In this document: piece by piece, positions 28,495 to 49,897 of the stretch
Numbering within the stretch: the stretch's first letter is position 1
Layout: every line of letters begins with the position of its first letter
Source: Alphaproteobacteria bacterium
GTDB lineage: Bacteria; Pseudomonadota; Alphaproteobacteria; MPNO01
Length of the DNA: 64,000 nucleotides
NCBI GenBank assembly: GCA_965231875.1
Contig: CBDDOM010000003.1
Location: forward strand, 417,899 to 481,898
Direction: 5' to 3'
Notes under the pieces: generated by a model
What the model was told of the DNA's origin: nothing
The model's input: the letters and a program-made list of their open reading frames with translations, nothing else
Databases searched by the model: none
Made by a program: the position numbers and the translations under genes

Positions 28495-28496
28495 CC

Positions 28497-33244: not shown

Positions 33245-34651
33245 CTAACCGCCGAGCCAGGGCAGCCAGACCGCCAATGCGGGGAAGATCACGATCAGCA
33301 GGGTGAGGAGCAGCGCGCACCCCATGAAGGGCAGCGCGGCCAGGCATATCTCGCTGAAGCGTGTGCCCGGCGGCGCCACCCCCTGCATGACGAACAGCAG
33401 CAGGCCAAAGGGCGGCGTGGTGAAGCTGATCTCCATCGCAAGCAGCATGATGACGGCGAACCAGATCAGCTTCATGTCCGCCGCCAGACCGAAATCGAGG
33501 CCCTGCACGATCGGGAAGAAGATCGGCACCGTCAGCAGCATCATGGCGAGCTGATCCATGAACATGCCGAGAAGCAGCAGGATGCCGAACATCATCAGCA
33601 GCATGACGTAAGGCGAAACCTCGAAGCTCGCGACCCAGGCGATCAATGCCGCGCTCGATCCCGAGGCCGCCAGCACGTTGGAAAAAAGCGACGACCCGAA
33701 CAGGATCATCAGCGCGATCACCGTCACCCGCCCGGCGCCCCAAAGCGATTTCCACATCGCCGCCGCGAAGAGCGGCCCGAAGGCAAGGGCCTGCCGGAAA
33801 TCGCCGCGCAGCAGCGGCACCACGAACAGATAGCCCACCGCCAGCAGGATCACGCCGACCGAGCCATAGGCGGCGGCTTCCGACGGCGTCGCCACCCCGC
33901 CCATGATCAAGCCGATCACGAAACCGATGATCGAGATCATCGGCAGGACATCGAACGCGAACAGCATGATGCGCCGGCTCACCGGCACGGTCTCGATCTC
34001 GTAGGACGGCGCGGCCTCCGGGTCGAGGGTCGCGCGGATGAAGATCAGGATGGCGTAGAAGACGGCCAGCAGCAGTCCCGGCACGATCCCGGCGATGAGC
34101 AGCCTGCCTATGTCGATCTCGGCCAGGGTGCCGAGCAGCACGGCGAGCGCCGAGGGCGGAATCAGCATGGCGAGGCCGCCGGTCCCGAGGATCGGCCCGA
34201 TCGACATGCTCTTCTTGTAGCCGCGCGAGGTCATCTCGGGGACCATCAGCGTGCCGAGCAGGGCGGTCGAGCCCATCGAAGAGCCGGACAGGGTGGCGAA
34301 GGCGGTGCCCCCCGCGACGGTGACGTAGGACAACCGCGCGGGAACCCGGCCCATCAGCTTCTCGACGGCGTTGAACATGCGGTTGGCGAGGCCGGTATGG
34401 AAGAACAGCTCGCCCATCAGCAGAAACATCGGAATCGGCACGATGGCGAAGATCGTCATGTTGCCGAACGCGTTGTCGACATGCTGGCCGATGGCCGACT
34501 GGACCCGCGTATCGAAATCGCCGAAACGGCCGAAAATGAAGAAGGCGGCGACCGTATTGACCGCGATGAACGCGATACCGACCGGCAGTCCGGCGAACAT
34601 CAGCAGCAGAATGGAGCCAAACAGTGCCAGAAGGATCCAGTACCACTCCAT
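33245..34651 (-). CDS. TRAP transporter large permease (DctM family)
   Basis: IPMFLLMGELF, LIPPS, ATPSEAAA, TTPPFG. Confidence 0.93.
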   Translation of the reverse strand: MEWYWILLALFGSILLLMFAGLPVGIAFIAVNTVAAFFIFGRFGDFDTRVQSAIGQHVDNAFGNMTIFAIVPIPMFLLMGELFFHTGLANRMFNAVEKLMGRVPARLSYVTVAGGTAFATLSGSSMGSTALLGTLMVPEMTSRGYKKSMSIGPILGTGGLAMLIPPSALAVLLGTLAEIDIGRLLIAGIVPGLLLAVFYAILIFIRATLDPEAAPSYEIETVPVSRRIMLFAFDVLPMISIIGFVIGLIMGGVATPSEAAAYGSVGVILLAVGYLFVVPLLRGDFRQALAFGPLFAAAMWKSLWGAGRVTVIALMILFGSSLFSNVLAASGSSAALIAWVASFEVSPYVMLLMMFGILLLLGMFMDQLAMMLLTVPIFFPIVQGLDFGLAADMKLIWFAVIMLLAMEISFTTPPFGLLLFVMQGVAPPGTRFSEICLAALPFMGCALLLTLLIVIFPALAVWLPWLGG

Positions 34652-35224
34652 TCAGCGGGCTTCCGTCAGGCTGCGCTTGGTCTCCTCGAGTTCGATCCGT
34701 TCGTTGCCGACACCGGCCTCGCCGCTGTGCATGGTCTGCCGGCCGAAGACGAATCGAAGAAATTCGACGGCCATGAACAGGAAGCCCACGGGATAGACGA
34801 TGGTGATCGTCCACAGGCGCATGCCGCGGTCGTCGCGCAGCTCGTCGAAGGCGAGCGGGTCTTCCAGATGCTCGAGGAATATGCCCCAGGTGTACCAGAC
34901 CCAGACCAGGCAGATCGCGGCGCAAAGCGCGGCGATGCCGCGGGACAGCACTGCCCGGTTCCGGTCCGGTACGGCCGCCGTCAGCAGTTCGATATAGACA
35001 TGCCCCCGGGTCCGAACGAGCCAAGGCGAGCCCAGGAAAAGGATGTAGAGGAAACCGTACTCGATCAGCGTGAAGACGAACTGGTTGTAGGCCCAGCCCG
35101 CGCTGCGGAAGATCGTCACATAGACGATCGCCAGCATGATAAAGCCGACATAGAGCGCGGCCAGCGCCATCATGACCCACAACAGGCCGGCCCAGACCCT
35201 GTCTGCGGCGCGTAAAACGCTCAT
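34652..35224 (-). CDS. TRAP transporter small permease (DctQ family)
   Basis: Four TM segments, GHVYIELL, between DctP and DctM. Confidence 0.85.
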   Translation of the reverse strand: MSVLRAADRVWAGLLWVMMALAALYVGFIMLAIVYVTIFRSAGWAYNQFVFTLIEYGFLYILFLGSPWLVRTRGHVYIELLTAAVPDRNRAVLSRGIAALCAAICLVWVWYTWGIFLEHLEDPLAFDELRDDRGMRLWTITIVYPVGFLFMAVEFLRFVFGRQTMHSGEAGVGNERIELEETKRSLTEAR

Positions 35225-35287
35225 CCGCCGCCGCTCCGGGCCCTCATGACGGCTCCCCCGGAGCGGGAAGCCGCGATCGGGAAGCTC

Positions 35288-36298
35288 CTATTGCTGCTGC
35301 CAGAGCTCGCGCAGCTTGGCGACGTGTTCGGTCGGGCGTTTTGCCTTCTTCAACCGGTCCGTCATGCGGGCATAGGCCGAATCGATCGCGAGTTTCGAAT
35401 AGACCGCGGCGGCCGGCACCGTGTGGAATTTCATGCCTTCCTTGGCCAGCGTCGCCCGCTCTTTCTTCGACTCGTCGAGCAGGACTTTCCGCACCGCCTT
35501 TTCGTTCGCGATCACCATGTCCTGGACCAGCTTGCGGAGTCCGGCATCGAGGCTGTTCCACTTCTTCAGGTTTATGAACCAGCCGATATCGGTGTGATAG
35601 AACTCCGGCTCCACGGCGTGGCGCAGGAACTTGTCCCATTTCAGGCCTTTCAGGCCGATGGTGGCCCAGGCGGCGGCGTTCACCACGCCCTTCTCCAGAG
35701 CGGAATAGACCTGAGTCGCCGGAAGCGGGTGGGTCGTCGCGTTCATCGCCCGGAAGAAAGCGCCGTAAATCGGGTTGTCGCGCAGTTTCACGCCGGCAAG
35801 ATCCAGCATGCCCTTGTCGTTGAATTTCGGCGCTTTCTCCATGTAGATCCGGAAGCGCCCGCCCGACGAGGTCCAGCCCAGGTTCTTCACCCCGAAATAT
35901 TTCTGCTGGATTTCGTCCAGCATTTCGAGGCCGCCATTGGCGCGGACGGTCTCGGGATTCGAGGCGGAGGTCGAGACCGCCTCGTTCTCCGGCACCGCCC
36001 GGGCGAAGAAGGCGTAGGGTATGCACATCATGTCGACCCGGCCCTTGCGGACGGCGGGCGGCTGCTGGAACATCTTGATCGAGTTGAACGGCAGCACCTC
36101 GATCGACAGCTTGCCCTTCGCTGCCGCCGTGATGTCGGCGGCGAGCTGCTTGCACTGCTTGGTGTAGATCAGGAAATCCGGGAACGGATAAACCATGTTG
36201 AGCTTCACTTCAGCGGACGCCTTGGGGGCGCCGGCTGTCAGGACAGCAGCCATCCCGGCCGCGGCCAGGAGTGCTCCAACAGGCTTCGATCTCAGCAT
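35288..36298 (-). CDS. TRAP transporter substrate-binding protein (DctP family)
   Basis: Signal peptide, GVKLR, VYSALEKGVV. Confidence 0.88.
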   Translation of the reverse strand: MLRSKPVGALLAAAGMAAVLTAGAPKASAEVKLNMVYPFPDFLIYTKQCKQLAADITAAAKGKLSIEVLPFNSIKMFQQPPAVRKGRVDMMCIPYAFFARAVPENEAVSTSASNPETVRANGGLEMLDEIQQKYFGVKNLGWTSSGGRFRIYMEKAPKFNDKGMLDLAGVKLRDNPIYGAFFRAMNATTHPLPATQVYSALEKGVVNAAAWATIGLKGLKWDKFLRHAVEPEFYHTDIGWFINLKKWNSLDAGLRKLVQDMVIANEKAVRKVLLDESKKERATLAKEGMKFHTVPAAAVYSKLAIDSAYARMTDRLKKAKRPTEHVAKLRELWQQQ

Positions 36299-36443: not shown

Positions 36444-37466
36444 CTACTTGAAGCCGAAGGCGGTTTTCATCTTGGCGACCAGTTCGGGCGAGACCTTCAA
36501 CCCTTCGTTGACGACCTTGACCAGCTCCTCGCCCGGGATCGCCGCGACCGGTGCGCGCCGCTTCTTGGCGTCGGCCAGAAATGCCGGGTCCTTCATCGTC
36601 GCCATGAACGAGGCGCGGAGCGCCGCCACCCGGTCCTTCGGCACCTCGGGCGCGACCCAGAAACCCATCCCGATCAGCTCGCAGACCTCGATGAAATTGA
36701 CCATCTTCTTGCCGTCTTCCGACTTCACGAGGTCCCCGATGCTGGGTACGTCCGGAAGCTCCGGAATGCGCGGACCGTACTGGATCAGGTGCTTGAGCTT
36801 GCCGGTCTTGAGCCAGTCGTTCTTGATCGTCGTCCAGCCGGTCCAGTAGTTCATCCGGCCGTGCACCTCGCCCTGCGCCATCGCCTTGTTGATCGAGGCG
36901 CCGCCCTTGTAGCCCTTGACGATCTTGAACTTGGTGCCGAGCAGGTGGTTCATCAGTTTTGGCATCAGGTAGGTCTCGGAACCGAAACCGGTCGAGCCCA
37001 TGATGACTTCTGTCTTCTTCACCCCGTCCAGCGTGGTGGCCGGCGCGTTGTGGAACACCGAGACTACGCTCGGACGCTGGGTGATCGATCCGAGCCACTG
37101 GAACTTGGTGGCGTCGAATTTGACGTTGCGGAGGATCGGCGCGAGGACCGAAGGAGCCAGCACCTCGGCGATCGTCGTCCCGTCCTTGGGCGCGGCATTG
37201 TAGACATAGGCGGCGCCCTTCGTGCCGCCGCCGCCCGGGCGCGACTGCACGATCACGGTCGGCTTGCCGGGAATATGATTGCCCCAGTGCTCCGCCAGCA
37301 GGCGGCCGTAGAGCCCGAGCGAGGCGCCGAGCCCGGCGGGGACCACGATGGTCACGGTTCTGTCCTTGTAGAAGCCCGCGACATCGGCCGAAGCCGACCC
37401 GGTCACACCGATCGCGAGTGCGCCGGCGGCAACCGCCAGCGCTCTGGTTGCGCGTTTGAACGGCAT
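36444..37466 (-). CDS. TTT family substrate-binding protein (TctC/Bug)
   Basis: FYKDRTVTIVV, PGGGG, APKDGTTI, GYKGG, QGEVHG, LPDVPS. Confidence 0.88.
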   Translation of the reverse strand: MPFKRATRALAVAAGALAIGVTGSASADVAGFYKDRTVTIVVPAGLGASLGLYGRLLAEHWGNHIPGKPTVIVQSRPGGGGTKGAAYVYNAAPKDGTTIAEVLAPSVLAPILRNVKFDATKFQWLGSITQRPSVVSVFHNAPATTLDGVKKTEVIMGSTGFGSETYLMPKLMNHLLGTKFKIVKGYKGGASINKAMAQGEVHGRMNYWTGWTTIKNDWLKTGKLKHLIQYGPRIPELPDVPSIGDLVKSEDGKKMVNFIEVCELIGMGFWVAPEVPKDRVAALRASFMATMKDPAFLADAKKRRAPVAAIPGEELVKVVNEGLKVSPELVAKMKTAFGFK

Positions 37467-37661
37467 CTTCTGCTCCTTGTTCGTTCTCGTCGCCGAAACG
37501 TCTCTAGCCGAGGCTAAGGATACGCTTGGCGTCGCCCCCGCGCAAAACCCGACCCGCCGGTTGTCACGGTCCGAAGGGCTGCATAGATTGCCGATCGCTT
37601 GGCTGTCGAATGAATCGTTTCCCGCGCGCCCGCACGGCGAGGCGGAAGGAGTCCATCTCCC

Positions 37662-39356
37662 ATGTCATTGCCGGCGCGGGGCTACCGCGACCTCCACGAA
37701 CACATCTCCGCGTTGCGCGAAGCCGGCCTGCTGATCGAGGTCCACCGGCGGATCAACAAGGATACCGAGATGCATCCTCTGGTCCGCTGGCAGTTCCGCG
37801 GCGGGATCGATGCCGAGGACCGCAAGGCGTTCCTGTTCACCAACGTGACCGATTCCAAGGGGCGGGAGTTCGACATTCCGGTCCTGGTATGCGGCCTGGC
37901 CGCCAACAGCCAAGTCTACGAGATGGGCATGGGCGTCCCGCTCGCCGAGATCAAGGAGAACTGGATCCGGGCGATGAACGCCCCGATCGAGCCCAACACG
38001 GTCGACGACGCGCCGTGCCACGAGGTCGTCCATCGCGATGGCGACCTGCTCAACGGAAGCGGGCTCGACGCGCTTCCCGTGCCGATCTCCTCGCCAGGAT
38101 GGGACAACGCGCCCTACACGACCTCTTCCCATTTCATCACCAAGGATCCAGAGACCGGCGTCCAGAACATGGGCAACTATCGCGGGATGCTGAAGGCGCC
38201 CAACCGGATCGGCATGAACCCTTCGATCGAACTCCGGACGGGCGGTTACATGCACTGGGAGGAGTGGAAAAAACGCGGCGAGCCCATGCCGTGCGCCATC
38301 GTCCTCGGCTGTCCGCCCGTGGTGTCCTTCACGGCCGTCCAGAAGATGCCGGAGAAGCTCGACGAGCTCTGGGTCTCCGGCGGGCTGGTGGGCAAGCCGT
38401 TGAACGTCGTCAAGGCGCAGACGGTCGACCTGCTGGTCCCGGCCGAGGCGGAGGTGGTGATCGAGGGCTTCGTGTCTACCGAACTTCTGGAGCCCGAGGC
38501 CCCGTTCGGCGAGAGTCACGGCCACGTCAATTTGCAGGAATATAACGGCTACGTCGACGTAACCGCGATCACCAGGCGTCGGGACGCGGTGATCACCTCA
38601 TGGGTGAGCCAGGTGACGCCGTCCGAATCGAGCGCCATCAAGCGGCCGGCCTACGAGGCGGCGCAAATCGAGCATCTGCGCGATCATCTCGGTATCAAGG
38701 GCGTGAAGCACGTCGCCACCCACGAGCCGCTGACCTCGCTCCACAAGCTGATTGTGGTCGTCGTCGAACGCGAGATTCCCCGCACCGAGATCTGGCGCGC
38801 GCTCTACGGCGTCGCTTCGCTGCGACGCGCCGAGGGCAAGTGGGTCATCGCGGTCAACGAGGACATCGACCCGGACGACACCAACGCGGTGTTCTGGGCG
38901 ATGTCCTACCGATCGAAGCCGCACCGCGATGTCGAGATCCTCAAGCACAAGGACGAGGGGCACGGCCCGCGCAGCCTGATCGACAGCGAGGACAGCGCTG
39001 TGCTGGTGGATGCAACGCTCAAGGAGACTTTCCCGCCGGTTTCGCTGCCCAAGCGCCAGTATATGGAGGCGGCGGCCGAGATCTGGAACGAGCTCGGCCT
39101 GCCGAAGCTCAAGCCCGAGCGGCCCTGGTTCGGCTATGATCTCGGCGAGTGGAACGAGGATCTGGAAATGATGGCGCGCCGTGCCGTGCGCAGCGAATAC
39201 TGGGAAACCGGGCGGATCATCGCCCAGCGCCGCCGGGGCGATGTTTCGATGAACACCGAGGTTCGGACGCTCGACGAGGGAAATCCCGGGGCGAGCGGTT
39301 CGGGAAGCGAGGAGGGAGAGCTCACATGGGACGGCTTGACGGACGCGTCGCGATAG
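37662..39356 (+). CDS. UbiD family prFMN-dependent (de)carboxylase, paralogue 1
   Basis: LFTNV, LPVP, TKDPETGVQNMGNYR, EVVIEG, EAPFGESHG, VNEDIDP, DAT. Confidence 0.92.
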   Translation: MSLPARGYRDLHEHISALREAGLLIEVHRRINKDTEMHPLVRWQFRGGIDAEDRKAFLFTNVTDSKGREFDIPVLVCGLAANSQVYEMGMGVPLAEIKENWIRAMNAPIEPNTVDDAPCHEVVHRDGDLLNGSGLDALPVPISSPGWDNAPYTTSSHFITKDPETGVQNMGNYRGMLKAPNRIGMNPSIELRTGGYMHWEEWKKRGEPMPCAIVLGCPPVVSFTAVQKMPEKLDELWVSGGLVGKPLNVVKAQTVDLLVPAEAEVVIEGFVSTELLEPEAPFGESHGHVNLQEYNGYVDVTAITRRRDAVITSWVSQVTPSESSAIKRPAYEAAQIEHLRDHLGIKGVKHVATHEPLTSLHKLIVVVVEREIPRTEIWRALYGVASLRRAEGKWVIAVNEDIDPDDTNAVFWAMSYRSKPHRDVEILKHKDEGHGPRSLIDSEDSAVLVDATLKETFPPVSLPKRQYMEAAAEIWNELGLPKLKPERPWFGYDLGEWNEDLEMMARRAVRSEYWETGRIIAQRRRGDVSMNTEVRTLDEGNPGASGSGSEEGELTWDGLTDASR

Positions 39357-40084
39357 TCACCGGCGCGGCGCAGGGAATCGGCGCCGCGTTCGCCCGCGCC
39401 ATGGCGGCGGAGGGCGCGAGGATCGCCATCGCGGACCTCGATTCCGGGGCCGGCATCGTCGAGGAATTGAAGGCGGGCGGCGCCGAGGCCATCGACGTGC
39501 CGACCGACGTCGCGGATGAGGACTCCTGCATGACGATGGTCGCGCGCACCGTGGAGGCGTTCGGCGGGCTCGACATCATCGTCAACAACGCCGCCGTCTT
39601 CACCACCGTAGAGCGCAAGGCTTTCGACGAGATCACGGTCGAGGAATGGGACCAGGTGCTCGCCGTCAACACCAAGGGCGTCTGGCTCTGCTGCAAGGCG
39701 GCCGCGCCGGAGATGCGCAAGAGAAAATACGGCAAGATCATCTCGATCTGCACCGGACGCATCTTCAAGGGCTCGCCCTTCTTCCTGCACTACGACGCTT
39801 CCAAGGCCGCCGTCCTGGGCATCACCCGTTCGCTCGCCCGCGAGCTCGGCGACGACAACATTTCCGTGAACGCGATCGCGCCCGGCTCGACGATGTCGGA
39901 GAACGTCTTGAAGCGGACCAACTGGATGGGCGGCGGACCGGAGCGCACGCGCGCGACGCGGGCGATCAAGGAGGACGAGACGCCGGAGGACCTGATCGGC
40001 GCCTGCGTCTATCTCGCGTCGGCCGACAGCGACTTCGTGACGGGCCAGACCATCGTCGTCGATGGCGGCTCGGCCATGTGGTAG
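39326..40084 (+). CDS. Short-chain dehydrogenase/reductase
   Basis: TGAAQGIG, VNNAA, YDASK, VNAIAPG, TGQTIVVDGG; GGAG-rich RBS before ATG 39326. Confidence 0.93.
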   Translation: MGRLDGRVAIVTGAAQGIGAAFARAMAAEGARIAIADLDSGAGIVEELKAGGAEAIDVPTDVADEDSCMTMVARTVEAFGGLDIIVNNAAVFTTVERKAFDEITVEEWDQVLAVNTKGVWLCCKAAAPEMRKRKYGKIISICTGRIFKGSPFFLHYDASKAAVLGITRSLARELGDDNISVNAIAPGSTMSENVLKRTNWMGGGPERTRATRAIKEDETPEDLIGACVYLASADSDFVTGQTIVVDGGSAMW

Positions 40085-41737
40085 ATGGCCGCCTCCCGCC
40101 TGGAGTCCAAAGCGCAGCGCGCGTATCCGGATTTCCGCGACCATCTCGACGCGCTCGACCGGGCGGGACTCCTGTTCCGTGTAGACGAACGCATCGACAA
40201 GGACGTCGAGATGCACCCCCTGGTCCGCTGGCAGTTCCGCGGCGGGCTGAAGGAAGACCAGCGCAAGGCCTTCCTTTTCACCGACGTCACGGACGCGAAG
40301 GGCCGGGACTACGACATGCCCGTGGTCGTCGGCGCGCTTGCCGCGAACGCCGCGATCTACAGCATCGGCATGGGTGTCCCGGTCGAAGAAATAGGCGATC
40401 GGTGGACCGCGGCCATCGCGAACCCCGTCCCGCCCGCGGAAGTAGCTCACGCGCCCTGCCAGGAGGTCGTGGTCGAGGGTGCCGCGCTGTTGGGCGAGGG
40501 AAGGGGGCTCGACGCGCTGCCGGTGCCGATCTCGACGCCCGGTTTCGACGCCGCGCCCTATCTCACCGCGACCGGATGCGTCACCAGGAATCCGGAGACC
40601 GGGGTCCAGAACATGGGCACCTACCGGGCGGGGCTGAAGGCGCCGGATCGCCTTGCGGTGCGGATGGCGACTCGTTCCGGCGGCGCGGAAGGTTATCGCC
40701 ACTGGCTGCAATACCGGGAGCGCGGCGAGCCCATGCCCTGCGCGATCGCGCTCGGCCCGCCGCCCGCGGTCGCCTATTGCGCGCCTCAGAAATTGCAGAT
40801 GGGGTTCGATGAGGTGGCGGTGGCAGGCGGGATCGTCGGCGCGCCGATCGATGTGGTCCGGTGCAGGACGGTCGACCTCACCGTCCCGGCCGATTCGGAG
40901 ATCGTGATCGAGGGGCTGATCGACACGGAATTCGTGGAGCCCGAGGCGCCGTTCGGCGAGAGCCACGGCCATGTCGCGCTCGAAGACTACAACATGATCA
41001 TGCGGGTGACCGCGATCGCCCACCGCCGGGACGCCATCCTGCCGTCGATCATCAGCCAGGTGACGCCGTCCGAATCGAGCGTCATCAAGCGGGTCGCCTA
41101 CGAGCCCTTGTTCCTTGCGCATCTGACAGACCGTCTCGGCATCAAGGGCGTCAAGCGGGTGGTCATGCACGAGCCGCTGACCAATATCCGGCGGGTGATC
41201 TTCGTCCAGTTCGAAGGCGGCGTGCCCAGGACCGAAGTGTGGCGCGCGCTCTACGGTGCGTCGTCGCTGCAATCGGCTTGCGGGAAATACGTCGTCGCGG
41301 TTTCCGACGACATCGATCCGGAAAACGCCGATGCCGTCTGGTGGTCGATCGCCTATCGCGCCAACCCGCGCGAGGACAGCGCGGTTCTCGACCACCGCCA
41401 TCGCGGCCATGGGCCGAAGACCGAAGACCCCGATTTCGAGGACTCGACGCTGCTGATCGACGCGACCCTCAAGGGCGACATGCCGCCCGTGGCGCTGCCC
41501 AGGGAAGGGTATATGGAACGCGCGAGGGAAATCTGGGAGCGTCTCGACCTGCCGTCCCTCAGCCCGCAGAGCCCGTGGGCCGGGTATTCGCTCGGCGACT
41601 GGGAGGAGCGCTGGGAAGCGGCCGCCCAACGAGCCGTCGCCGGCGACTATCTGGAAAACGGCCGGCTGACGGCGCAGCGGCGGAGAAGCGCCGTCGAGCC
41701 CGAAACGCCGGTCCGCTGGGTCGAAGACGATGTCTAG
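40085..41737 (+). CDS. UbiD family prFMN-dependent (de)carboxylase, paralogue 2
   Basis: QNMGTYR, EIVIEG, EAPFGESHG, DDIDP, IDAT. Confidence 0.92.
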   Translation: MAASRLESKAQRAYPDFRDHLDALDRAGLLFRVDERIDKDVEMHPLVRWQFRGGLKEDQRKAFLFTDVTDAKGRDYDMPVVVGALAANAAIYSIGMGVPVEEIGDRWTAAIANPVPPAEVAHAPCQEVVVEGAALLGEGRGLDALPVPISTPGFDAAPYLTATGCVTRNPETGVQNMGTYRAGLKAPDRLAVRMATRSGGAEGYRHWLQYRERGEPMPCAIALGPPPAVAYCAPQKLQMGFDEVAVAGGIVGAPIDVVRCRTVDLTVPADSEIVIEGLIDTEFVEPEAPFGESHGHVALEDYNMIMRVTAIAHRRDAILPSIISQVTPSESSVIKRVAYEPLFLAHLTDRLGIKGVKRVVMHEPLTNIRRVIFVQFEGGVPRTEVWRALYGASSLQSACGKYVVAVSDDIDPENADAVWWSIAYRANPREDSAVLDHRHRGHGPKTEDPDFEDSTLLIDATLKGDMPPVALPREGYMERAREIWERLDLPSLSPQSPWAGYSLGDWEERWEAAAQRAVAGDYLENGRLTAQRRRSAVEPETPVRWVEDDV

Positions 41738-43364
41738 TTCCGCGCGCGGTTATCCGGACCTTCACGATCACATCGCCACGCTGGAGGGGTCCGGTCTTCT
41801 TGTCCGCGTTGATCGCGAGATCAACAAGGACACGGAAATGCATCCGCTGGTCCGCTGGCAGTTTCGCGGCGGCATTCCGGAAAATGAGCGTAAGGCGTTC
41901 CTGTTCACCAACGTGGTCGACTCCAAGGACCGGAGCTACGACATACCGGTGATCGTCGGCGGGCTGGCGGCGAGCCGGGAGATCTATCGGCACGGGATTG
42001 GCTGCGAGCTCGACCGGATCGATGAGCGCTGGGCGGAGGCGATCGCCAACCCGATCCCGCCCCGCGAGATCGCGGACGCGCCGTGCCACGAACTGGTGTT
42101 CGCCGACGAGGCGCTCAATACCGAGGGGAACGCGCTCGACGGCATCCCGGTGCCGATCTCGACGCCCGGCTGGGACAACGCGCCCTACACGACGCTGTCC
42201 CAATACATCACCCGCGACCCCGACACCGGCATCCAGAACATGGGCAACTACCGGGGGCAGGTGAAAGCGCCCCGGCGTCTCGGCATGAACCCCTCGCTGG
42301 AGCTCAGACCGGGTATCTACATCCACTGGCAGAAATACCGGGAGCGCGGCGAGCGCATGCCGGCCGCCGTGGTTCTCGGCGCACCGCCATGCGTGACCTT
42401 CACATCGACCCTCAAGCTGCCCGAGTCGGTCTGTGAGTTCGACATCGCGGGCGGGCTGGTCGGCTGCCCGCTGAACGTCGTCAGGGCGAAGACCGTCGAC
42501 CTCCTCGTTCCCGCCGAGGCCGAGATCGTTGTCGAAGGCTATATCGACACGGAATACCTCGAACCCGAGGCGCCGTTCGGGGAAAGCCATGGCCACGTCA
42601 ATTTGCAGGAATTCAACGCCTTCATGGACGTGACCGCCGTGACCCGGCGCAAGAACGCGGTCCTGACTTCCATCATCAGCCAGGTTACGCCGTCCGAATC
42701 GAGCACCATCAAGCGGGTGGCGATGGAGCCGCTGTTCCTCGCGCATCTCAGGGACCGCCTGGGCATCAAGGGCGTGATCCGCGTCGGCATGCACGAACCG
42801 CTGACCAATATCAGGAAGGTCATCGTGGTCCAGGTCGAGCGCGGCCTCGCGCGGACCGAGATCTGGCGGGCGCTCTACGGCGCGGCCTCGCTGCATCGCG
42901 CGGCCGGGAAGTACGTCATCGCGGTCAACGACGATATCGACCCGGACAACGCCGATGCCCTGTTCTGGGCGATGGCGTACCGCGCCAACCCCGCCCTCGA
43001 TCTCGAAATGCTCGGCCACCGCGACCAGGGACACGGCCCGCGCAGCCTTCGCAACAACGGCGAGGATGCGAGCGTCCTGATCGACGCCACGCTCAAGGAG
43101 GACTTTCCGCCGATCTCGCTGCCCAGGCGGGAGTTCATGGATAACGCCCGGGAAATATGGGAAGAGCTGGGCCTCCCGCCGCTCAAGCCCGAGACGCCCT
43201 GGCACGGTTACAGTCTCGGTGAGTGGTCGGAGGAGTTCGAGCGCGCCGCGGTCATGGCCACGGAAGGCGACTATTTCGAGACCGGCCGGATTATCGCCCA
43301 GAGACGGCGCAACGACGTCGAAATGAACACCGAGGTGCGCCGCGTGGACGAGGGCGGCGACTAG
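41730..43364 (+). CDS. UbiD family prFMN-dependent (de)carboxylase, paralogue 3
   Basis: QNMGNYR, EIVVEG, EAPFGESHG, NDDIDP, IDAT. Confidence 0.92.
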   Translation: MSSSARGYPDLHDHIATLEGSGLLVRVDREINKDTEMHPLVRWQFRGGIPENERKAFLFTNVVDSKDRSYDIPVIVGGLAASREIYRHGIGCELDRIDERWAEAIANPIPPREIADAPCHELVFADEALNTEGNALDGIPVPISTPGWDNAPYTTLSQYITRDPDTGIQNMGNYRGQVKAPRRLGMNPSLELRPGIYIHWQKYRERGERMPAAVVLGAPPCVTFTSTLKLPESVCEFDIAGGLVGCPLNVVRAKTVDLLVPAEAEIVVEGYIDTEYLEPEAPFGESHGHVNLQEFNAFMDVTAVTRRKNAVLTSIISQVTPSESSTIKRVAMEPLFLAHLRDRLGIKGVIRVGMHEPLTNIRKVIVVQVERGLARTEIWRALYGAASLHRAAGKYVIAVNDDIDPDNADALFWAMAYRANPALDLEMLGHRDQGHGPRSLRNNGEDASVLIDATLKEDFPPISLPRREFMDNAREIWEELGLPPLKPETPWHGYSLGEWSEEFERAAVMATEGDYFETGRIIAQRRRNDVEMNTEVRRVDEGGD

Positions 43365-43395: not shown

Positions 43396-43505
43396 TCGTC
43401 ATATCGACCGAAGCGCCGTCAGGCGCGCAGCTGAGAAATCTCGTGCGCGTGGCCGGAGATATCTCCGCTCCGCCGCGCTCCGCGCGGCTCCGGTCGATAT
43501 GACGA
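43396..43505. repeat. 110-bp palindromic intergenic repeat (empty copy of the outer element at 55663-56060)
   Basis: TCGTCATATCGACCGAAGC ... GCTCCGGTCGATATGACGA inverted arms; inner GAGAAATCT/AGATATCTC. Confidence 0.85.
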
Positions 43506-43598: not shown

Positions 43599-44678
43599 TT
43601 GGCTGACTTCGCGACACTGCATGAGATCGTCGCCGCCGCGCGCGGCAATCTGTCCGACGGCGTCTGGGACTACCTGACCGGCGGAACCGAGACGGAGACC
43701 TCCCTGCTCCGCAACCGCCTGGGGCTCGATTCGATCGCCTTCCGGCCTCGCGTGCTCAACGATGTCAGTTCCATCGATCTCGCGGGAACGATCGCCGGGC
43801 AGGCAACGCGGCTGCCCGTCGCGCTTGCGCCGATGGGTTCGCTGGAAAACCTGCACCCGGACGGCTCGATGGCGGTCGCCAGGGCGGCGGAGGCATTCGG
43901 CACGGTCTCCTACCTGAGCTCGGTGACGCATCCCGGGCTCGAGGCGATCGCCAAGGGCACCGGGCACCCGAAGATTTACCAGCTCTATGTCCGCGGCGAC
44001 CGGGAGTGGGTCGCGGAAATGGCGCGGCGCGCGATCGACAATGGCTACATCGCGTTCTGCCTCACCGTCGACGTCGCCCTCTACTCGCGCCGGGAGCGCG
44101 ACCTGATCAAGCGCTACGTGCCCACTGCGCGGCGCGCGTCCGCCGAGGGGATGGACTACCAGGCGATGCTCGACTGGGATTTCGTCGACTGGTTCAAGGA
44201 TTCCTTCGACATCCCGCTCCAGATCAAGGGGGTCGCGACCGCCGAGGACGCCGCGCTCTGCGTCGAGCACGGGGTGGACACGGTCTATGTCTCCAACCAC
44301 GGCGGGCGGCAGCTCGACCATGGCAGGGCGACCATCGACGTGTTGCCCGAGGTAGTGGAGGCGGTCGGCGGCAGGGCGGAGATCGTCATCGACGGCGGCT
44401 TCATGCGCGGCGCCGACATCGTCAAGGCGATCGCCCGGGGCGCCGATTCGGTCGCCATAGGCAAGGTTCAGGGCTTCGGGCTCGCCGCCGAGGGCAAATC
44501 GGGGATCGTCCGCGTGCTGGAGCTGCTGGAAGACGAGATGCGGATCGCGATGGGGCTGATGGGCCTCACCCGCCTCGACCGGCTCGACGAAACCTTTCTC
44601 CATGAAGCGGCGCCGGTGCGCGAGCCCTCGGCAATCTCCGCCTTTCCCTTTCTCAAACTCAGGTCACCGGAGTACTGA
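43599..44678 (+). CDS. FMN-dependent alpha-hydroxy acid dehydrogenase/oxidase
   Basis: FRPRVL, LAPMG, LTVD, RRERD, IKGV, VSNHGGRQLD, DGGFMRGAD; GGAGGAG before TTG. Confidence 0.93.
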   Translation: MADFATLHEIVAAARGNLSDGVWDYLTGGTETETSLLRNRLGLDSIAFRPRVLNDVSSIDLAGTIAGQATRLPVALAPMGSLENLHPDGSMAVARAAEAFGTVSYLSSVTHPGLEAIAKGTGHPKIYQLYVRGDREWVAEMARRAIDNGYIAFCLTVDVALYSRRERDLIKRYVPTARRASAEGMDYQAMLDWDFVDWFKDSFDIPLQIKGVATAEDAALCVEHGVDTVYVSNHGGRQLDHGRATIDVLPEVVEAVGGRAEIVIDGGFMRGADIVKAIARGADSVAIGKVQGFGLAAEGKSGIVRVLELLEDEMRIAMGLMGLTRLDRLDETFLHEAAPVREPSAISAFPFLKLRSPEY

Positions 44679-44681: not shown

Positions 44682-46487
44682 ATGAACATGTTGCAGAAAT
44701 TCGACCGGCCCGCGCTCGGCGGCAACCGTCAAATGGAATGGACCAGCGACGTCGCGGCCGAGATGCTGCGCCGCCTCGGGATCAAGTACGTCTCGCTGAA
44801 CCCCGGCGCCAGCTATCGCGGGTTCCACGACTCGATCGTCAACTATCTCGGCAACGAAGACCCGCAGATGCTGCTCTGCCTGCACGAGGATCATGCGGTC
44901 TCGATCGCCCATGGATACGCCAAGGTGACCGACGAACCCATGGGGGCCATCGTCCATTCCAATGTCGGCCTGATGCACGGGTTGATGGCGATGTTCAACG
45001 CCTGGTGCGACCGCGCGCCGGTCTATGTGATGGGTGCGACCGGTCCGGTCGACGCGCCGCTCAGGCGGCCATGGATCGACTGGATCCACACCGCCAAGGA
45101 CCAGGGCATGATGCTGCGGAATTTCGTCAAATGGGACGACGAACCGCGCTCCGCCGAGGCGATCGTCGAAACCATGCTTCGCGGCGGGATCATGGCGCGG
45201 ACGCCGCCGCGCGGGCCGGTCTATATCTGTCTCGACGCGGGGCTCCAGGAAACCCGGCTCAACGGCGAAGTGACGATCCCGGACGCCGGAAGGTTCGAGG
45301 CGCCCGAGACGCCGCACGCATCGGCGGACGCCGTGTCCGCGGCGGCGGATACGCTGATCGCCGCCGAGCGGCCGGTGATGATGATCGGCCGGGTGTCGCG
45401 CAGCCAGAACGGGTGGGACCGTCGTGTGCGTTTGGCGGAAATGCTGGGCGCGCGCGTGGTCACCGACCTCAAGACCTCTTCCTCCTTCCCGACCGGGCAT
45501 CCGCTCCACGCGGGAGCGCCGTCCAACTGGGTGCGCGGTCCAGGCGAGGATCTGGTTCGGAACGCGGATGCGCTCCTTGTGCTCGACTGGATCGACCTTG
45601 CCGGCACCTTCAAGGCGCTGGGTCTCGGTTACGGCGTGGACGCGAAGGTCATCGACGTGACCCTCGACTCTTACGTTCACAACGGCTGGTCGATGGATCA
45701 TTTCGGACTTGCGGTGGGCGATCAGCGCCTGCTCGCCGATCCGGACGCCTTCGTTGTCCAGCTCCTCGCGGAGGTCGAGGAAAGGCTGGGCGGAAAACCC
45801 AAATTCGCCGGTGGCGATCCCGTGCCGCTCGCCGAACCCGATTCCAAGGAAGCGTCTTCGCCTATCGCACCGCGCGACATTGCCGGCGCGCTCAACCGGA
45901 TCAAGGGAGAGAGAAAGATAACCCTGACCCGCGTGCCGCTCGGCTGGGCAGGCGATTCGTATCACTTCTCCGAACCGCTCGATTACCTCGGCAACGATGG
46001 CGGCGGGGGGCTCGGTTCCGGCCCGGGCAATGCGGTCGGCGCCGGACTCGCGCTGATGGGATCGGACCGGGTGCCGGTCGCCATCCTCGGCGACGGCGAC
46101 TTCATGCAGGGCGGCTCGGCGCTCTGGACCGCCGCGCACTACAACATCCCTGTGCTCTTCGTGGTTTCCAACAACCGGTCGAACTTCAACGACGAGGTTC
46201 ATCAGGAGGCGATGGCGAAGGAGCGGAACCGTCCGGTGGAGAACCGCTGGATCGGCCAGCGCATCGACGATCCGGCGATCGACCTGGCCGGCTACGCCCG
46301 CTCGCAAGGCGTCGACGCGGCGGGTCCGGTCGAGACCGCGGGCGATCTTCCGGCGGCTCTCGATGCCGCCATCGCGGCCGTCGAAGCGGGCAAGCCGTTC
46401 CTGCTCGACGTGGTGGTCCAGCCGGGCTACAGCGCGCCCATGGTAACCCGGGCGAGCGGCGAGGCCTCGACCGGCACCGCGAGCTGA
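44682..46487 (+). CDS. Thiamine diphosphate-dependent enzyme (benzoylformate decarboxylase/acetolactate synthase-like)
   Basis: NPGASYRG, LHE, AHGYAK, GDGDFMQ...VSNN ThDP motif. Confidence 0.88.
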   Translation: MNMLQKFDRPALGGNRQMEWTSDVAAEMLRRLGIKYVSLNPGASYRGFHDSIVNYLGNEDPQMLLCLHEDHAVSIAHGYAKVTDEPMGAIVHSNVGLMHGLMAMFNAWCDRAPVYVMGATGPVDAPLRRPWIDWIHTAKDQGMMLRNFVKWDDEPRSAEAIVETMLRGGIMARTPPRGPVYICLDAGLQETRLNGEVTIPDAGRFEAPETPHASADAVSAAADTLIAAERPVMMIGRVSRSQNGWDRRVRLAEMLGARVVTDLKTSSSFPTGHPLHAGAPSNWVRGPGEDLVRNADALLVLDWIDLAGTFKALGLGYGVDAKVIDVTLDSYVHNGWSMDHFGLAVGDQRLLADPDAFVVQLLAEVEERLGGKPKFAGGDPVPLAEPDSKEASSPIAPRDIAGALNRIKGERKITLTRVPLGWAGDSYHFSEPLDYLGNDGGGGLGSGPGNAVGAGLALMGSDRVPVAILGDGDFMQGGSALWTAAHYNIPVLFVVSNNRSNFNDEVHQEAMAKERNRPVENRWIGQRIDDPAIDLAGYARSQGVDAAGPVETAGDLPAALDAAIAAVEAGKPFLLDVVVQPGYSAPMVTRASGEASTGTAS

Positions 46488-46496
46488 GGCGGCGCT

Positions 46497-46596
46497 CCCC
46501 CTCACCCCGACCCTCTCCCCGCGGGGGAGAGGGGATTTGCCCGCCCACTCCGCCTTACCTTCCCCCCTCCCGCTTGCGGGAGGGGCCGGGGGAGGG
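46497..46596. repeat. REP-like double hairpin repeat between convergent genes
   Basis: CCCTCACCCCGACCCTCTCCCCGCGGGGGAGAGGG and CCCCTCCCGCTTGCGGGAGGGG hairpins in inverted arrangement. Confidence 0.8.
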
Positions 46597-46796
46597 CGGA
46601 CAACTGTGCCACGAATAATTCGCGCGGCCCAGGCGGCACTCCCCCGCCGCGCTGCGCGGGGACCGGTTCGGGCGCGAGTCCCGTCCCCCGGGGACGCGGA
46701 ACCGGCGGTTTCGCGACACGATGTTACGCGCGCTCCCGTATTTTGTGACTTACGGCACGTTCTTGACACGATGGATAAGTCAGTACTGTTGACCTT

Positions 46797-46840: not shown

Positions 46841-47917
46841 TCACAGCCTGATTTCCTCGCCCAGCAGCGGAAAGGCGCCGAGTTCGGTCGCCTCGGTCAC
46901 CGCGGGAGCCTCCGTGACGTAGCTCGGGTCCAGCTGGTCCATGCTCGTAATGCCGATCAGCCCCATCGCGTTGTGAATCTCAGCTTCCAGGATTTCAAGC
47001 GCACGGATCAGTGTCGCCGTCCCGCCGACCGCGAGCGCCCAGGCCTGGAGCCGGCCGATGGCGACCGCATTGGCGCCGAGAGCGAAGGCCTTGAGGACGT
47101 CGCACCCCCGGGCGATTCCGGAATCGAGCACGATTTCCGCCCGGCCGTCGACCGCCGCCACCACCTCCCGCAGGATGTCGATCGTGCCCTGGCCGTGGTC
47201 CATCTGCCGACCGCCGTGGTTGGAGACGTACACCACGTCGACCCCGTGCTCGACCGCGAGTTCGGCATCCTCGGCGGTCTGGATGCCCTTGAGGATGAAG
47301 GGAAGGCCGCCATGCTCCTTCATCATCGCCATGGTTTCCCAGGTGATTTTGGTCTGCCATTCGCGCCCGATCTGGGTGCGGACGCTGGGTGGCAGCCAGC
47401 GGCTGAGGAGCTGGCGTTCGCGGCGGCCGTAATGGGCCGAATCGACGGTGAGGGCGAGGGCGGCGTAGCCGGCGTCGCGCGCGCGTCCGACGAGGTCGCG
47501 GATCCAGTTTTCGTCGCCGCGAATGTAAATCTGGAAGATTTTCGGGTGATCGACCGCGTCCGCGATTTCTTCGAGGCTCGGCTGGGTGACGGTCGAGACC
47601 ATCTGCAGCGTGCCGAAGGCCGCCGCCGCCCGGGCCACGGCGACTCCCGCATCCGGAGTGATGGTCTGCAACGAACCGATCGGCGCGAGCAGGACGGGAA
47701 TTCGCAGTTTGTGACCGAGCAGCTGGCCCGAAGTGTCGATCTCGGAGACATCGCGCAGGACCCGCGGACGAAAGGCGATACGGTCGAGCGCATGCCGGTT
47801 GCGCCGCATCGTCGTCTCGGTCTCGGCGGCGCCGGTGATGTAGTTCCACACCGGTTGGCTCACGTTCGCGCGCGCGGCGCGGATGATTTCTTGCGTGGTC
47901 TCGAATCGCTCAGTCAT
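46841..47917 (-). CDS. FMN-dependent alpha-hydroxy acid dehydrogenase/oxidase (paralogue of 43599-44678)
   Basis: FRPRVLRDVS, LAPIG, LTVD, ILKGI, VSNHGGRQMD; start set at MTERF by alignment with paralogue. Confidence 0.92.
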   Translation of the reverse strand: MTERFETTQEIIRAARANVSQPVWNYITGAAETETTMRRNRHALDRIAFRPRVLRDVSEIDTSGQLLGHKLRIPVLLAPIGSLQTITPDAGVAVARAAAAFGTLQMVSTVTQPSLEEIADAVDHPKIFQIYIRGDENWIRDLVGRARDAGYAALALTVDSAHYGRRERQLLSRWLPPSVRTQIGREWQTKITWETMAMMKEHGGLPFILKGIQTAEDAELAVEHGVDVVYVSNHGGRQMDHGQGTIDILREVVAAVDGRAEIVLDSGIARGCDVLKAFALGANAVAIGRLQAWALAVGGTATLIRALEILEAEIHNAMGLIGITSMDQLDPSYVTEAPAVTEATELGAFPLLGEEIRL

Positions 47918-48027
47918 GGGGTGCTCCGGTGATCTGGTCTGCTTCTTTCCTGGGTTGAGGACGCGCCGTTGACAGCGGCGGCGCCAGAGACGAAACATGA
48001 TCCCACGCCGGAGCGGCACGGAGAACC

Positions 48028-48834
48028 ATGGCCAACATCCTTGAGATTTCCGAGGTCTCGAAGACCTATGACGTCGACACCGGGAACCCCGTCCAGGCGC
48101 TGGACCGGGTAACGCTCGACGTCGCCGAGGGCGAGTTCGTCTCGGTGATCGGCCCCAGCGGTTGCGGCAAGTCGACGCTTTTCAACATCGTCGGCGGCCT
48201 GATCGCCCAATACGAGGGCAGCGTGCTGATCGACGGCCACGCGGTCGACGGCGCGCATCGCGACGTCGGCGTCGTGTTCCAGGAAGAATCGACCTTTCCC
48301 TGGCGAACCACGCTCGACAACGTCGCCTTCCCGCTCGAGGTCCAGGGCATGACCAAGGTCGACCGCGACGAACGGGCGCGGAAATTCGTGAGTCTGGTGG
48401 GCCTCGATGGTTTCGAGAACCACTACCCGGCCCAGCTCTCGGGCGGGATGAAACAGCGGACGGCGGTGGCGAGGACTCTTGCGTACGAGCCGCGCATCAT
48501 GCTGCTGGACGAGCCGTTCGGCGCACTCGACGAACAGACCCGCATGCTGCTCGGCGACAAGATGCTGGAGATCTGGGCGGCGCTGAACCAGACGATGCTG
48601 CTGATCACCCACAACATCACCGAAGCGGTCCAGCTCTCGGACCGGGTGGTGGTAATGTCCTTCCGTCCCGGCAAGATCAAGGAGATCATCGAGATCGATC
48701 TGCCGCGTCCACGGTCGTCGGAAGTGATTTCCACGCCCAAATTCGGCGAATACGTCGGGAGGCTCTGGACGCTTCTCCGCGAGGAGGCATCGCGGGGGAT
48801 GGTCGAGGCCGAAGCCGAGCTCGCAGCACGATAA
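48028..48834 (+). CDS. ABC transporter ATP-binding protein, NitT/TauT family
   Basis: GPSGCGKST, LSGGMKQR, LLDEPFGALD, ITH. Confidence 0.95.
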   Translation: MANILEISEVSKTYDVDTGNPVQALDRVTLDVAEGEFVSVIGPSGCGKSTLFNIVGGLIAQYEGSVLIDGHAVDGAHRDVGVVFQEESTFPWRTTLDNVAFPLEVQGMTKVDRDERARKFVSLVGLDGFENHYPAQLSGGMKQRTAVARTLAYEPRIMLLDEPFGALDEQTRMLLGDKMLEIWAALNQTMLLITHNITEAVQLSDRVVVMSFRPGKIKEIIEIDLPRPRSSEVISTPKFGEYVGRLWTLLREEASRGMVEAEAELAAR

Positions 48835-48907
48835 AATGGGCGGTTTCGCAGCCGTGGCGGGTTTCGGATAGACTGCCGCGGCTGATCACAAGGAGGGGAG
48901 TGAACAA

Positions 48908-49873
48908 ATGGCTGGATACGTGAAAACGGCGGTGCTTGCCGCCATGGCGGCGGCGGTCGCCGCAGCGCCCGCGGTAGCGCTCGACAAGGTCCGCATGGTC
49001 AACAGCACCAAGGTGGTGTTCGAGACCGAGCATCCCTACGCCGCCAAGGAAAACGGGATCTTCGAGAAGTACGGGCTCGACGTGTCGATCATCCACGGCT
49101 CGGGCGGCGCGGCATCGCTTCAGGCGGTAATCACCGCAAGCCAGGACGTGGTCTGGGGCAACGGCGTGCTCGGCGTGGTGTCGGCCTATGCCAAGGGTGC
49201 GCCGATCCGCGTGCTGGGAAGCAACATCCGTGGCGTGCCCGACCTCTACTGGTATGTGAAGACCGACAGCAAGATCAAGAGCTTCAAGGATCTCAAGGCG
49301 AGTGACGAATTCGTCTATTCGCGGCCGGGCTCCACCACCAACCTTGCTGTCCTGTTCATCAAGGAAGCGCTCAACATCCCGGCCAAGGCGGTCTCGGTCG
49401 GCGGGCCGTCGGGCTCGCGTACGCAGCTCATGTCGGGCCAGGTGGCCACCGGGTGGTCGGTCTTCCCGCTCAACAAGAACCTGTTGCGCGAAAAGAAGAT
49501 CCGCATCATCGGCACGGGGGCCTCGGCCGCCGCGCTGACCGGCACCACCATCCGTGTGATCGTGGCGAACGTGAACTGGCTCAACAAGAACCGCGATGCC
49601 GCCAGACGCCTGATGAATGCGCTTACGGAGGGCCAGGCGCGCACCTATTCGAGCGACGAGCAGTTGAGGGCCTATGCCAAGCGCTGGAAGCTCAACTACG
49701 AGGACATAAAGTCGGCGCCGATGGACACGCCGCTCAACTCCTCGACCTTCCTGCCGGTCGCCGGGCTTGAGACCATCAACAAGATCGCGCTCGAGAACAA
49801 GAAGATCAAGAAGCTGCTCACCGCGGAACAGCTCAAGGAGCTGGTGCATCCGATGGGCAACAAGCCCATCTAA
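48908..49873 (+). CDS. ABC transporter substrate-binding protein, NitT/TauT family
   Basis: Signal peptide, GIFEKYGLDV, IKSFKDLK, SRPGSTT. Confidence 0.88.
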   Translation: MAGYVKTAVLAAMAAAVAAAPAVALDKVRMVNSTKVVFETEHPYAAKENGIFEKYGLDVSIIHGSGGAASLQAVITASQDVVWGNGVLGVVSAYAKGAPIRVLGSNIRGVPDLYWYVKTDSKIKSFKDLKASDEFVYSRPGSTTNLAVLFIKEALNIPAKAVSVGGPSGSRTQLMSGQVATGWSVFPLNKNLLREKKIRIIGTGASAAALTGTTIRVIVANVNWLNKNRDAARRLMNALTEGQARTYSSDEQLRAYAKRWKLNYEDIKSAPMDTPLNSSTFLPVAGLETINKIALENKKIKKLLTAEQLKELVHPMGNKPI

Positions 49874-49897
49874 AGCGTTGCGCGCGGACGGCGCGGG

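Follow-up and report, generated by a model that had tools for sequence, protein, structure and literature searches.

What do three paralogous UbiD proteins, encoded side by side, do for the bacterium that carries them? The question is raised by a 64,000-nt stretch of an alphaproteobacterial genome (GCA_965231875.1, contig CBDDOM010000003.1, positions 417,899 to 481,898; hereafter the window), in which four plus-strand genes, ubiD1-SDR-ubiD2-ubiD3, overlap or abut one another at 37662-43364 and encode three UbiD proteins and a short-chain dehydrogenase/reductase (SDR). The locus is genuine as well as conserved, and it represents a variant within a well-known enzyme family, from a large unstudied branch of it. 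The account that we consider probable is that each of the three proteins is an active decarboxylase in its own right, that their substrates are related carboxylated aromatic or heteroaromatic compounds taken up from outside, and that the three are co-expressed and obtain prenylated flavin mononucleotide (prFMN) from a distant UbiX.

Structure and authenticity of the operon

An earlier reading of this DNA from the letters alone (the sequence-only reading) described junctions of 31-nt overlap, 0-nt gap, and 8-nt overlap, and the open reading frames (ORFs), Pfam matches, and junction sequences agree with it throughout. The longest SDR ORF spans 39149-40084, while SDR profile alignments start only at its residues 60-66, and the ATG at 39326 is preceded by GAGGAGGGAGAG and yields MGRLDGRVAIVTGAAQGIG, a normal SDR N-terminus; because the SDR start is placed there, its overlap with ubiD1 is 31 nt. 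The SDR gene ends with a TAG stop codon (40082-40084) that the ATG of ubiD2 directly follows, and the overlap of ubiD2 and ubiD3 is ATGTCTAG. Upstream of ubiD1, an AGGAG precedes the start codon by 9 nt. A promoter scan of the region returned one promoter-like site where 1.2 would be expected by chance, and no convincing plus-strand terminator was found within the operon in a terminator scan. UbiD1, UbiD2, and UbiD3 are 56-65% identical in pairwise alignment, and all three carry the motifs listed in the sequence-only reading: NMGxYR, EAPFGE, MHPLVRWQFRGG, SQVTPSESS, and a W.GY.LG.W...AQRRR tail. The SDR falls below the NCBIfam cut-offs, its top matches, PRK07774 and pyridoxal 4-dehydrogenase, both being under theirs.

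The suspicion that the copies might be assembly artefacts, also raised by the sequence-only reading, is ruled out by contigs of three runs, by related genomes, and by the separate, old clades to which the paralogues belong. Contigs of the short-read runs X2-X4 span the operon and bridge both junctions with zero differences (for example, X2 at 37120-40249, X4 at 40220-41883, and X2 at 41077-43486), a support that is weak alone because the runs come from one study and possibly from the source sample. Stronger support comes from the adjacency of the trio in 11 of 11 genomes of the same genus, and the trio is also found at two loci of named Defluviicoccus metagenome-assembled genomes (MAGs), L014 and L015 (L numbers denote related loci, G numbers genomes). 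Separately, the only RNA run (X1), a metatranscriptome labeled as a sponge metagenome, contains contigs 90-100% like positions 36000-48100, with pieces of tctC, ubiD1, the ubiD1/SDR junction, ubiD2, and a thiamine diphosphate (ThDP) enzyme gene; the relative is approximately 92% identical, and one 523-nt contig crosses the ubiD1/SDR overlap. These contigs hint at a close relative within a sponge holobiont.

Active site, specificity loop, and C-terminal tail

None of the 87 subfamily sequences departs from N170, R175, E236, E280, and E285 (numbered as in UbiD3), and we take the roles of these residues, from the literature on Fdc1 and UbiD, to be catalytic or metal-binding. In alignments, these positions of UbiD3 coincide with the motifs QNLGIYR and EGPYGD of E. 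coli UbiD and with the corresponding motifs of HmfF. An E(D)-R-E network is named in PMC8988006. The UbiD3 protein was modeled by AlphaFold2 from the 87-sequence subfamily alignment (mean predicted local distance difference test score, pLDDT, 87.1; predicted template modeling score, pTM, 0.80), and the model has the UbiD fold, with VIA-align Z scores of 32-37 against 49 UbiD entries over residues 6-460 and Foldseek E values of approximately 1e-35 to 1e-40, the top matches all being UbiD enzymes. Within this range of Z, HmfF, HudA, VdcC, E. coli UbiD, Fdc1, AroY, PhdA, InD, Pcd, and TtnD are tied.

The alignments with solved UbiD structures stop near model residue 460, leaving an extra tail of approximately 85 residues (461-544), which none of the solved UbiD chains listed by VIA-align spans. 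The tail folds confidently in the model, with helices at 467-479, 501-511, 515-523, and 536-540, and W477, P490, W491, G493, G497, and W499 are invariant in the 87 sequences. When the tail alone was compared with the ESM Atlas, only C-terminal fragments of UbiD proteins were matched (scores 0.92-0.93). Given that the C-terminal element of solved UbiDs contacts the adjacent monomer (PMC8988006), the modeled tail may be an enlarged version of the short C-terminal inter-subunit helix of other UbiDs.

The SQVTPSESS loop is equally constant, S317, Q318, V319, P321, S322, and E323 being found in 87 of 87 sequences; it overlaps segment 318-328, the only part of the model below a pLDDT of 50. S324 of UbiD3, conserved in at least 90% of the subfamily, aligns with the single histidine in that stretch of HmfF, and H297 of HmfF, which corresponds to N318 of HudA, is described as key for furan specificity (PMC7976604). 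The subfamily thus appears uniform at a known specificity position, because the loop is invariant and S324 stands opposite HmfF H297. The three clades to which UbiD1, UbiD2, and UbiD3 belong (D1, D2, and D3) are distinguished at 12 positions, five of which fall within loop 187-196, situated between the catalytic arginine and H199, and one six residues after E285, at 291; positions 148 and 156 are also clade-specific. Such a pattern would suit enzymes that share a substrate scaffold with clade-specific tuning.

A long-tailed branch of the UbiD family

Family membership is secure for the trio in Pfam terms: PF01977 (E = 4e-50 to 5e-51) and PF20696 are present in all three proteins, and PF20695 (UbiD_N) in UbiD2, slightly under the gathering score, and in UbiD3. 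None reaches an equivalog or subfamily cut-off of NCBIfam, and the best solved relative, HmfF, is 28-31% identical; the proposal that they form an uncharacterized UbiD subfamily has therefore held, and no characterized member of the long-tailed subfamily was found. When a profile of the three proteins was run against the 37 UbiDs of the genome, the window genes scored 1078-1125 bits, two further genes on the same replicon (C3) 839-893 bits, one gene 476, and two 279-300, while the other 29 remained at or below 185 bits. Outside the genome the branch is large: two subfamily-specific peptide patterns matched at least 616 stretches in a species-level genome set, at least 586 of them encoding a relative. 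The loci kept are mostly from Alpha- and Betaproteobacteria and nearly all from MAGs, and the closest named relatives among the matches listed are Defluviicoccus MAGs. Genes of the D3 clade were also matched in cultured bacteria, Propylenella binzhouense L72 and Limnohabitans sp. 15K.

Age and linkage of the paralogues

A tree built with IQ-TREE (quick search, LG+G4) from 90 rows, comprising 82 subfamily proteins of the loci, six from the genome itself, and two outgroup paralogues, and limited to rows of at least 450 aa and 400 bits, places the window UbiDs in three separate clades. D1 contains 21 rows, with a Shimodaira-Hasegawa-like approximate likelihood ratio (SH-aLRT) support of 99; the D2-like clade contains 20 rows (SH-aLRT 89), including both other C3 paralogues; and D3 contains 46 rows (SH-aLRT 85), 43 of which form an inner group supported at 98. 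The duplications are old, because members of every clade occur outside the order, and those of D2 and D3 even in other classes.

Linkage was counted in 30 relatives from the matches listed, 21 further matches lying outside that listing. On this basis the trio is adjacent in 15 of 30 (G001-G011, G014, G021, G025, and G028), with the order D2-D1-D3 in G021, G025, and G028 as opposed to D1-SDR-D2-D3 in the window, and a pair is adjacent in seven more (G012, G013, and G015-G019). In four genomes, all of family f3, a pair lies 8-21 kb away from a D3-like gene, in family f5 (3 genomes) the copies are dispersed, and G023 is too fragmented for its linkage to be judged. In L014-L018, L020, L021, L028, and L030 the SDR separates D1 from the UbiD that follows, and it is absent from the D2-D1-D3 arrangement; being present only in some loci, it is optional. 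D2 is missing from the otherwise syntenic L018, L020, and L021, and from G015.

Across 73 related loci, 47 have one subfamily copy, 18 have two, seven have three, and one has four. Each of the five genomes reached via single-copy loci has 2-7 matches, which are placed on separate contigs or at a large distance from one another. Because the copies are usually dispersed outside the order, an obligate hetero-oligomer is argued against. As a separate observation, in the genome of L027 a D3-like gene (G155:C6:56987-58607) appears as two adjoining matches covering residues 3-360 and 357-541, and is possibly frameshifted or split.

Cofactor supply and the expansion of UbiD genes

The window lies on C3, a 637-kb replicon of a 6.18-Mb genome (G000) in three contigs, which also bears housekeeping genes such as hisD, hisG, and that for RNase G. 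The sequence-only reading was correct that the window has no prFMN synthase gene: among five UbiX candidates in the genome, one exceeds the cut-off (TIGR00421, 238 bits; cut-off 108.9), and it is located on another replicon (G000:C2:1455042-1455587). As 37 of 42 UbiD candidates in the genome exceed the cut-off, with other tandem pairs at C2:1900502-1903594 and C2:5106705-5109853, this single ubiX evidently serves all 37 UbiD genes, and the lack of UbiX in the window is uninformative about the operon.

The multiplicity of UbiDs is a property of the lineage. In the order, 27 of 30 relatives, belonging to four families, have 27-39 UbiD matches each, even in 2.5-Mb genomes, and the three genomes of the fifth family (f5) have 9-14. 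In 120 other families of the class, represented by one genome each (at least 90% complete; including the unpublished G062, with one match) in a tally in which G000 itself was scored only in part, the number ranges from 0 to 13: 64 families have none, and 42 of the 56 with a match have exactly one. No paper on a UbiD expansion in this order was found in the literature searched.

It should also be noted that the canonical, ubiquinone-type UbiD, present in 30 of 30 relatives, is missing from G000 (99.6% complete, three contigs, no N). The best Pfam E value in the relatives is approximately 1e-76 to 1e-80 (5e-69 in one incomplete genome) as opposed to 5.5e-71 in G000, and the best tblastn match in G000 to the canonical orthologue of G010 (L092:1096-2616, minus strand; 656 bits on NF008175) is 32% identical. 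Either the gene was truly lost and a paralogue took its place, or the assembly has a gap there.

Comparison with characterized UbiD systems

The best match to the window UbiDs is HmfF, the 2,5-furandicarboxylate decarboxylase of Pelotomaculum thermopropionicum (6H6V/6H6X; phmmer E = 2e-37, Foldseek E = 1.5e-40, Z = 36.6), which has the same prFMN-binding and oligomerization domains and the same catalytic E-R-E motif, and whose substrate, a heteroaromatic dicarboxylate, fits the transporter context of the operon. The likeness has limits. Besides the low identity, no NCBIfam HmfF model is among the matches; HmfF ends near model residue 460, lacking both the tail and the MHPLVRWQFRGG insert; Ser324 in UbiD3 takes the place of its H297, so that the HmfF-type histidine is not found; and in fold it is not clearly nearer, because its Z is tied with those of HudA, VdcC, and E. 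coli UbiD. In Cupriavidus basilensis, moreover, HmfF is accompanied by HmfG, a UbiX, whereas no UbiX gene adjoins the window operon.

Phenylphosphate carboxylase, a known multi-UbiD heteromer, likewise has several UbiD paralogues side by side (PpcA/PpcB, alpha/beta), but the window proteins score 84-97 bits on TIGR02723 and TIGR02724 against cut-offs of 565 and 469, and between the abutting genes there is no room for small partners such as the gamma and delta subunits. At this locus, then, the partner genes of known heteromers are absent, as the sequence-only reading had claimed. The neighborhood also differs, consisting here of importers and FMN_dh-type genes, with flavin adenine dinucleotide (FAD)-dependent ring hydroxylases in related loci.

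A comparison by description, not by sequence, can be made with XCDC (LA1_0150) of Cupriavidus sp. LA-1 (genome AP031387-AP031390), a recently characterized xanthine-carboxylate decarboxylase of the lumazine/pterin degradation cluster I, which its authors place outside the known UbiD branches and which has a molybdenum (Mo) dehydrogenase and an enzyme of amidohydrolase type as partners in converting an N-heteroaromatic carboxylate (PMC12391406). Mo-hydroxylase and amidohydrolase genes also recur beside members of the long-tailed subfamily, but the XCDC cluster has its own UbiX and purine/pyrimidine transporters (PMC12391406), as opposed to a remote UbiX and importers of other types here. As XCDC shows, UbiDs of unplaced branches can have N-heteroaromatic carboxylates as substrates and work together with Mo-dehydrogenases (PMC12391406).

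Other families are more distant. Canonical UbiD, the 4-hydroxy-3-polyprenylbenzoate decarboxylase of ubiquinone synthesis, shares family, fold, and catalytic motifs with the trio, but NF008175 gives 125-139 bits for the window UbiDs against a cut-off of 788, as compared with 656 for the same-genus orthologue; this cut-off is strict, because among the controls it is exceeded in E. coli only. VdcC/BsdC, subunit C of hydroxyarylic acid decarboxylase, is set apart by 143-149 bits on NF041204 against a cut-off of 650.

Genomic neighborhood

The operon is flanked by three types of importer, namely a tripartite tricarboxylate transporter (TTT), two tripartite ATP-independent periplasmic (TRAP) transporters, and an ATP-binding cassette (ABC) system, and by several enzymes of generic families (Table 1). 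Amidohydro_2 is a family of metal-dependent non-oxidative decarboxylases and hydratases. The first FMN_dh gene, syntenic in L014, L015, L018, L020, L021, and L033, follows ubiD3 after a 234-nt spacer that holds a palindromic repeat. The ThDP enzyme scores 226 bits on PRK08327 and 154 bits on the benzoylformate decarboxylase model, both under the NCBIfam cut-offs, and its orthologues (65-95% identity) adjoin UbiDs in eight loci; the ABC importer is syntenic in L014, L015, L020, L021, L031, and L033. NCBIfam assigns no function to the SDR, FMN_dh, ThDP, Amidohydro_2, TctC, and NMT1 proteins (below cut-off or no match), and no regulator gene was found between 24 and 54 kb in the window.

Table 1. 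Operon genes and flanking features, with positions in the window
Feature	Position	Strand	Basis and remarks
TRAP transporter 1 (DctP, DctQ, DctM)	26936..29807	+	Pfam; limits from a gene caller based on G+C at third codon positions (GC3)
Amidohydro_2 protein	29849..31084	+	PF04909, E = 1.1e-24; no NCBIfam match; with the trio in L014, L017, L031
Fused TctA-TctB, TTT membrane component	31144..33240	+	Pfam TctA (E = 1e-126), TctB
TRAP transporter 2 (DctM, DctQ, DctP)	33245..36298	-	Pfam; kept in L014, L015
TctC (Bug-type) periplasmic solute-binding protein	36444..37466	-	Pfam TctC; divergent from ubiD1
Sigma-70-like promoter match, single, weak	37561..37589	+	Upstream of ubiD1; a lead only
UbiD1	37662..39356	+	564 aa, D1 clade; Pfam UbiD, UbiD_C; alignment, tree
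SDR oxidoreductase, classical	39326..40084	+	252 aa; Pfam adh_short; TGAAQGIG and YDASK in translation
UbiD2	40085..41737	+	550 aa, D2 clade; Pfam UbiD_N, UbiD, UbiD_C
UbiD3	41730..43364	+	544 aa, D3 clade; Pfam UbiD_N, UbiD, UbiD_C; protein modeled
Palindromic intergenic repeat, ~110 nt	43396..43505		~45 partial genomic copies; blastn of spacer; contig depth raised
FMN-dependent 2-hydroxyacid dehydrogenase/oxidase 1	43599..44678	+	FMN_dh, E = 4e-101; below all NCBIfam cut-offs
ThDP enzyme, weakly benzoylformate-decarboxylase-like	44682..46487	+	Pfam TPP_enzyme N, M, C; 3 nt past FMN_dh 1
G+C-rich repetitive extragenic palindromic (REP)-like repeat, ~105 nt	46496..46600		~100 genomic copies; blastn; depth ~25x flanks
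FMN-dependent 2-hydroxyacid dehydrogenase/oxidase 2	46841..48019	-	Pfam FMN_dh, E = 3e-108
ABC importer: ATPase, NMT1/SsuA-like binding protein, two permeases	48028..51486	+	Pfam ABC_tran, NMT1 (48908-49873), BPD_transp_1 x2

Neighbors were counted within three genes on either side in 62 loci, 11 of the 73 being dropped where the gene caller found no high-scoring subfamily gene. TctC is the commonest (22 of 62 loci), followed by Amidohydro_2 (10), the ThDP enzyme (9), the large subunit of Mo-hydroxylase (8, with its FAD subunit in 4), SDR, distant UbiD, and FAD-dependent aromatic-ring hydroxylase (7 each), and TctA and the acyl-CoA ligase type (5 each). The recurrence of importers, Amidohydro_2, ThDP enzymes, Mo-hydroxylases, and ring hydroxylases points to the breakdown of carboxylated (hetero)aromatics.

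Several further features were observed. A subfamily paralogue elsewhere in the genome, C3:69853-71541 in L088 (G000:C3:61817-79541), has as neighbors a small cupin, an NMT1 binding protein, an FAA hydrolase, a glyoxalase-fold dioxygenase, and a 377-aa cupin, a set that resembles that of gentisate-type ring cleavage. What follows the ABC importer at 51517-53458, namely a gene for a small Rieske protein, a 108-aa ORF that matches no Pfam family, and the second Amidohydro_2 gene of the window, may be another decarboxylase/oxygenase module. Catabolic-type genes are also present in more remote stretches of the window (15031-16029, 20746-23079, and 58728-63624), namely those for a third Amidohydro_2 and a further ThDP enzyme, the large subunit of a Mo-hydroxylase, an MmgE/PrpD protein, and two proteins of the phosphoenolpyruvate (PEP)-mutase/isocitrate-lyase family. 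An IS66 transposase lies at 57082-58665, and a 472-aa plus-strand ORF at 11578-12996 has the GC3 of a coding sequence and matches nothing in Pfam at E = 1e-5.

Competing explanations of the operon

In the favored account, D1, D2, and D3 would be catalytically competent, prFMN-dependent decarboxylases, each homo-oligomeric and co-expressed with the others by translational coupling, and each would decarboxylate an aromatic or heteroaromatic acid of its own, the three acids being chemically related. The acids would be imported by the flanking TTT, TRAP, and ABC systems, prFMN would be supplied in trans by the single UbiX on the main chromosome, and the SDR, both FMN_dh proteins, the ThDP enzyme, and Amidohydro_2 would process side chains or further carboxyls of the same compound family. 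The gene structure, the fold, the conserved catalytic residues, the age and synteny of the paralogues, the presence of UbiX elsewhere in the genome, and the UbiD expansion are observed; the direction of the reaction (decarboxylation), the homo-oligomeric state, and the substrate class are what we infer for the trio. Whether the three act sequentially on one polycarboxylate or in parallel on analogues stands at roughly even odds.

A number of points weigh against this account. The chemistry of the trio is argued from neighborhood and family analogy only, because there is no subfamily member with a known substrate; the operon neighbors belong to generic families, all below NCBIfam cut-offs; and Pfam reveals neither a ring-cleavage dioxygenase nor a regulator beside the operon. 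The RNA-library contigs of X1 may be DNA carry-over, and neither transcription nor operon structure is established by that run. Finally, the tight coupling and the conserved adjacency of D1 and D3 would fit a heteromer equally well, and, as the tail extends an element that contacts the adjacent monomer (PMC8988006), a paralogue-specific assembly is conceivable.

One alternative, which we consider unlikely, is that the three are isoenzymes unrelated in function, acting on quite different acids and clustered through the tandem UbiD duplication of the lineage. The abundance of UbiDs and of other tandem pairs in the genome, the quite different neighbors of subfamily paralogues elsewhere in it, and the three importer types around the operon all speak for this, but the paralogues are ancient and not recent tandem copies, their adjacency is kept in at least three families of the order despite rearranged gene order, and the loop at the specificity position is invariant among the three.

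More speculatively, and with rather little confidence on our part, the trio may be a decarboxylation line of three specialized prFMN enzymes, perhaps assembled through their tails into a mixed complex, that acts together with the neighboring ThDP and Amidohydro_2 decarboxylases to strip polycarboxylated (N-hetero)aromatics of successive carboxyls, for example the benzene- or pyridine-polycarboxylates of refractory organic matter.

It is improbable that D1, D2, and D3 together make up one hetero-oligomeric (de)carboxylase, like the alpha/beta pair of phenylphosphate carboxylase, with each tail clasping a non-identical neighbor. In favor of this, genes that overlap or abut lend themselves to balanced, coupled expression, 22 of the 30 relatives have D1 next to D3 among the matches listed, and the strongly conserved tail extends an element that binds the adjacent monomer in solved UbiDs (PMC8988006). 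Nevertheless, every catalytic and metal-binding residue is kept in all three proteins, single copies prevail among the loci, copies are dispersed in all five other genomes and in the three f5 genomes, D2 can be missing from syntenic loci, the PpcA/PpcB models score far below their cut-offs, and no space is left for small partner subunits. The suggestion of the sequence-only reading that the UbiDs either form a hetero-oligomer or decarboxylate sequentially has thus fared unevenly: an obligate hetero-oligomer is leaned against by the retained residues, the 47 of 73 single-copy loci, and the dispersal of copies, while its sequential variant is inseparable from parallel action.

Very improbable, lastly, is a role in carboxylation or biosynthesis (e.g., of a quinone or secondary metabolite) instead of catabolism, for although UbiD reactions are reversible, some members are biosynthetic (PMC6644310, PMC8988006), and the genome is without the canonical UbiD of its relatives, the genes around the operon encode importers and enzymes of a catabolic type and include no biosynthetic core, the trio also occurs in relatives that possess canonical UbiD, and the canonical model scores are far under the cut-off.

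Implications

UbiDs are sought as reversible (de)carboxylation catalysts, and few of them have been characterized in detail (PMC8988006). The branch described here is distinct in its longer C-terminal part, its invariant loop at the specificity position, and its conserved three-gene arrangement, and its substrates, once identified, would add new UbiD chemistry and could explain the diet of these bacteria. The presence of 27-39 UbiDs per genome suggests that non-oxidative decarboxylation underlies an entire lifestyle. If the three enzymes do work as a decarboxylation line, approximately 30 UbiDs per genome would mark the order as a specialist in the decarboxylative breakdown of polycarboxylated (N-hetero)aromatics.

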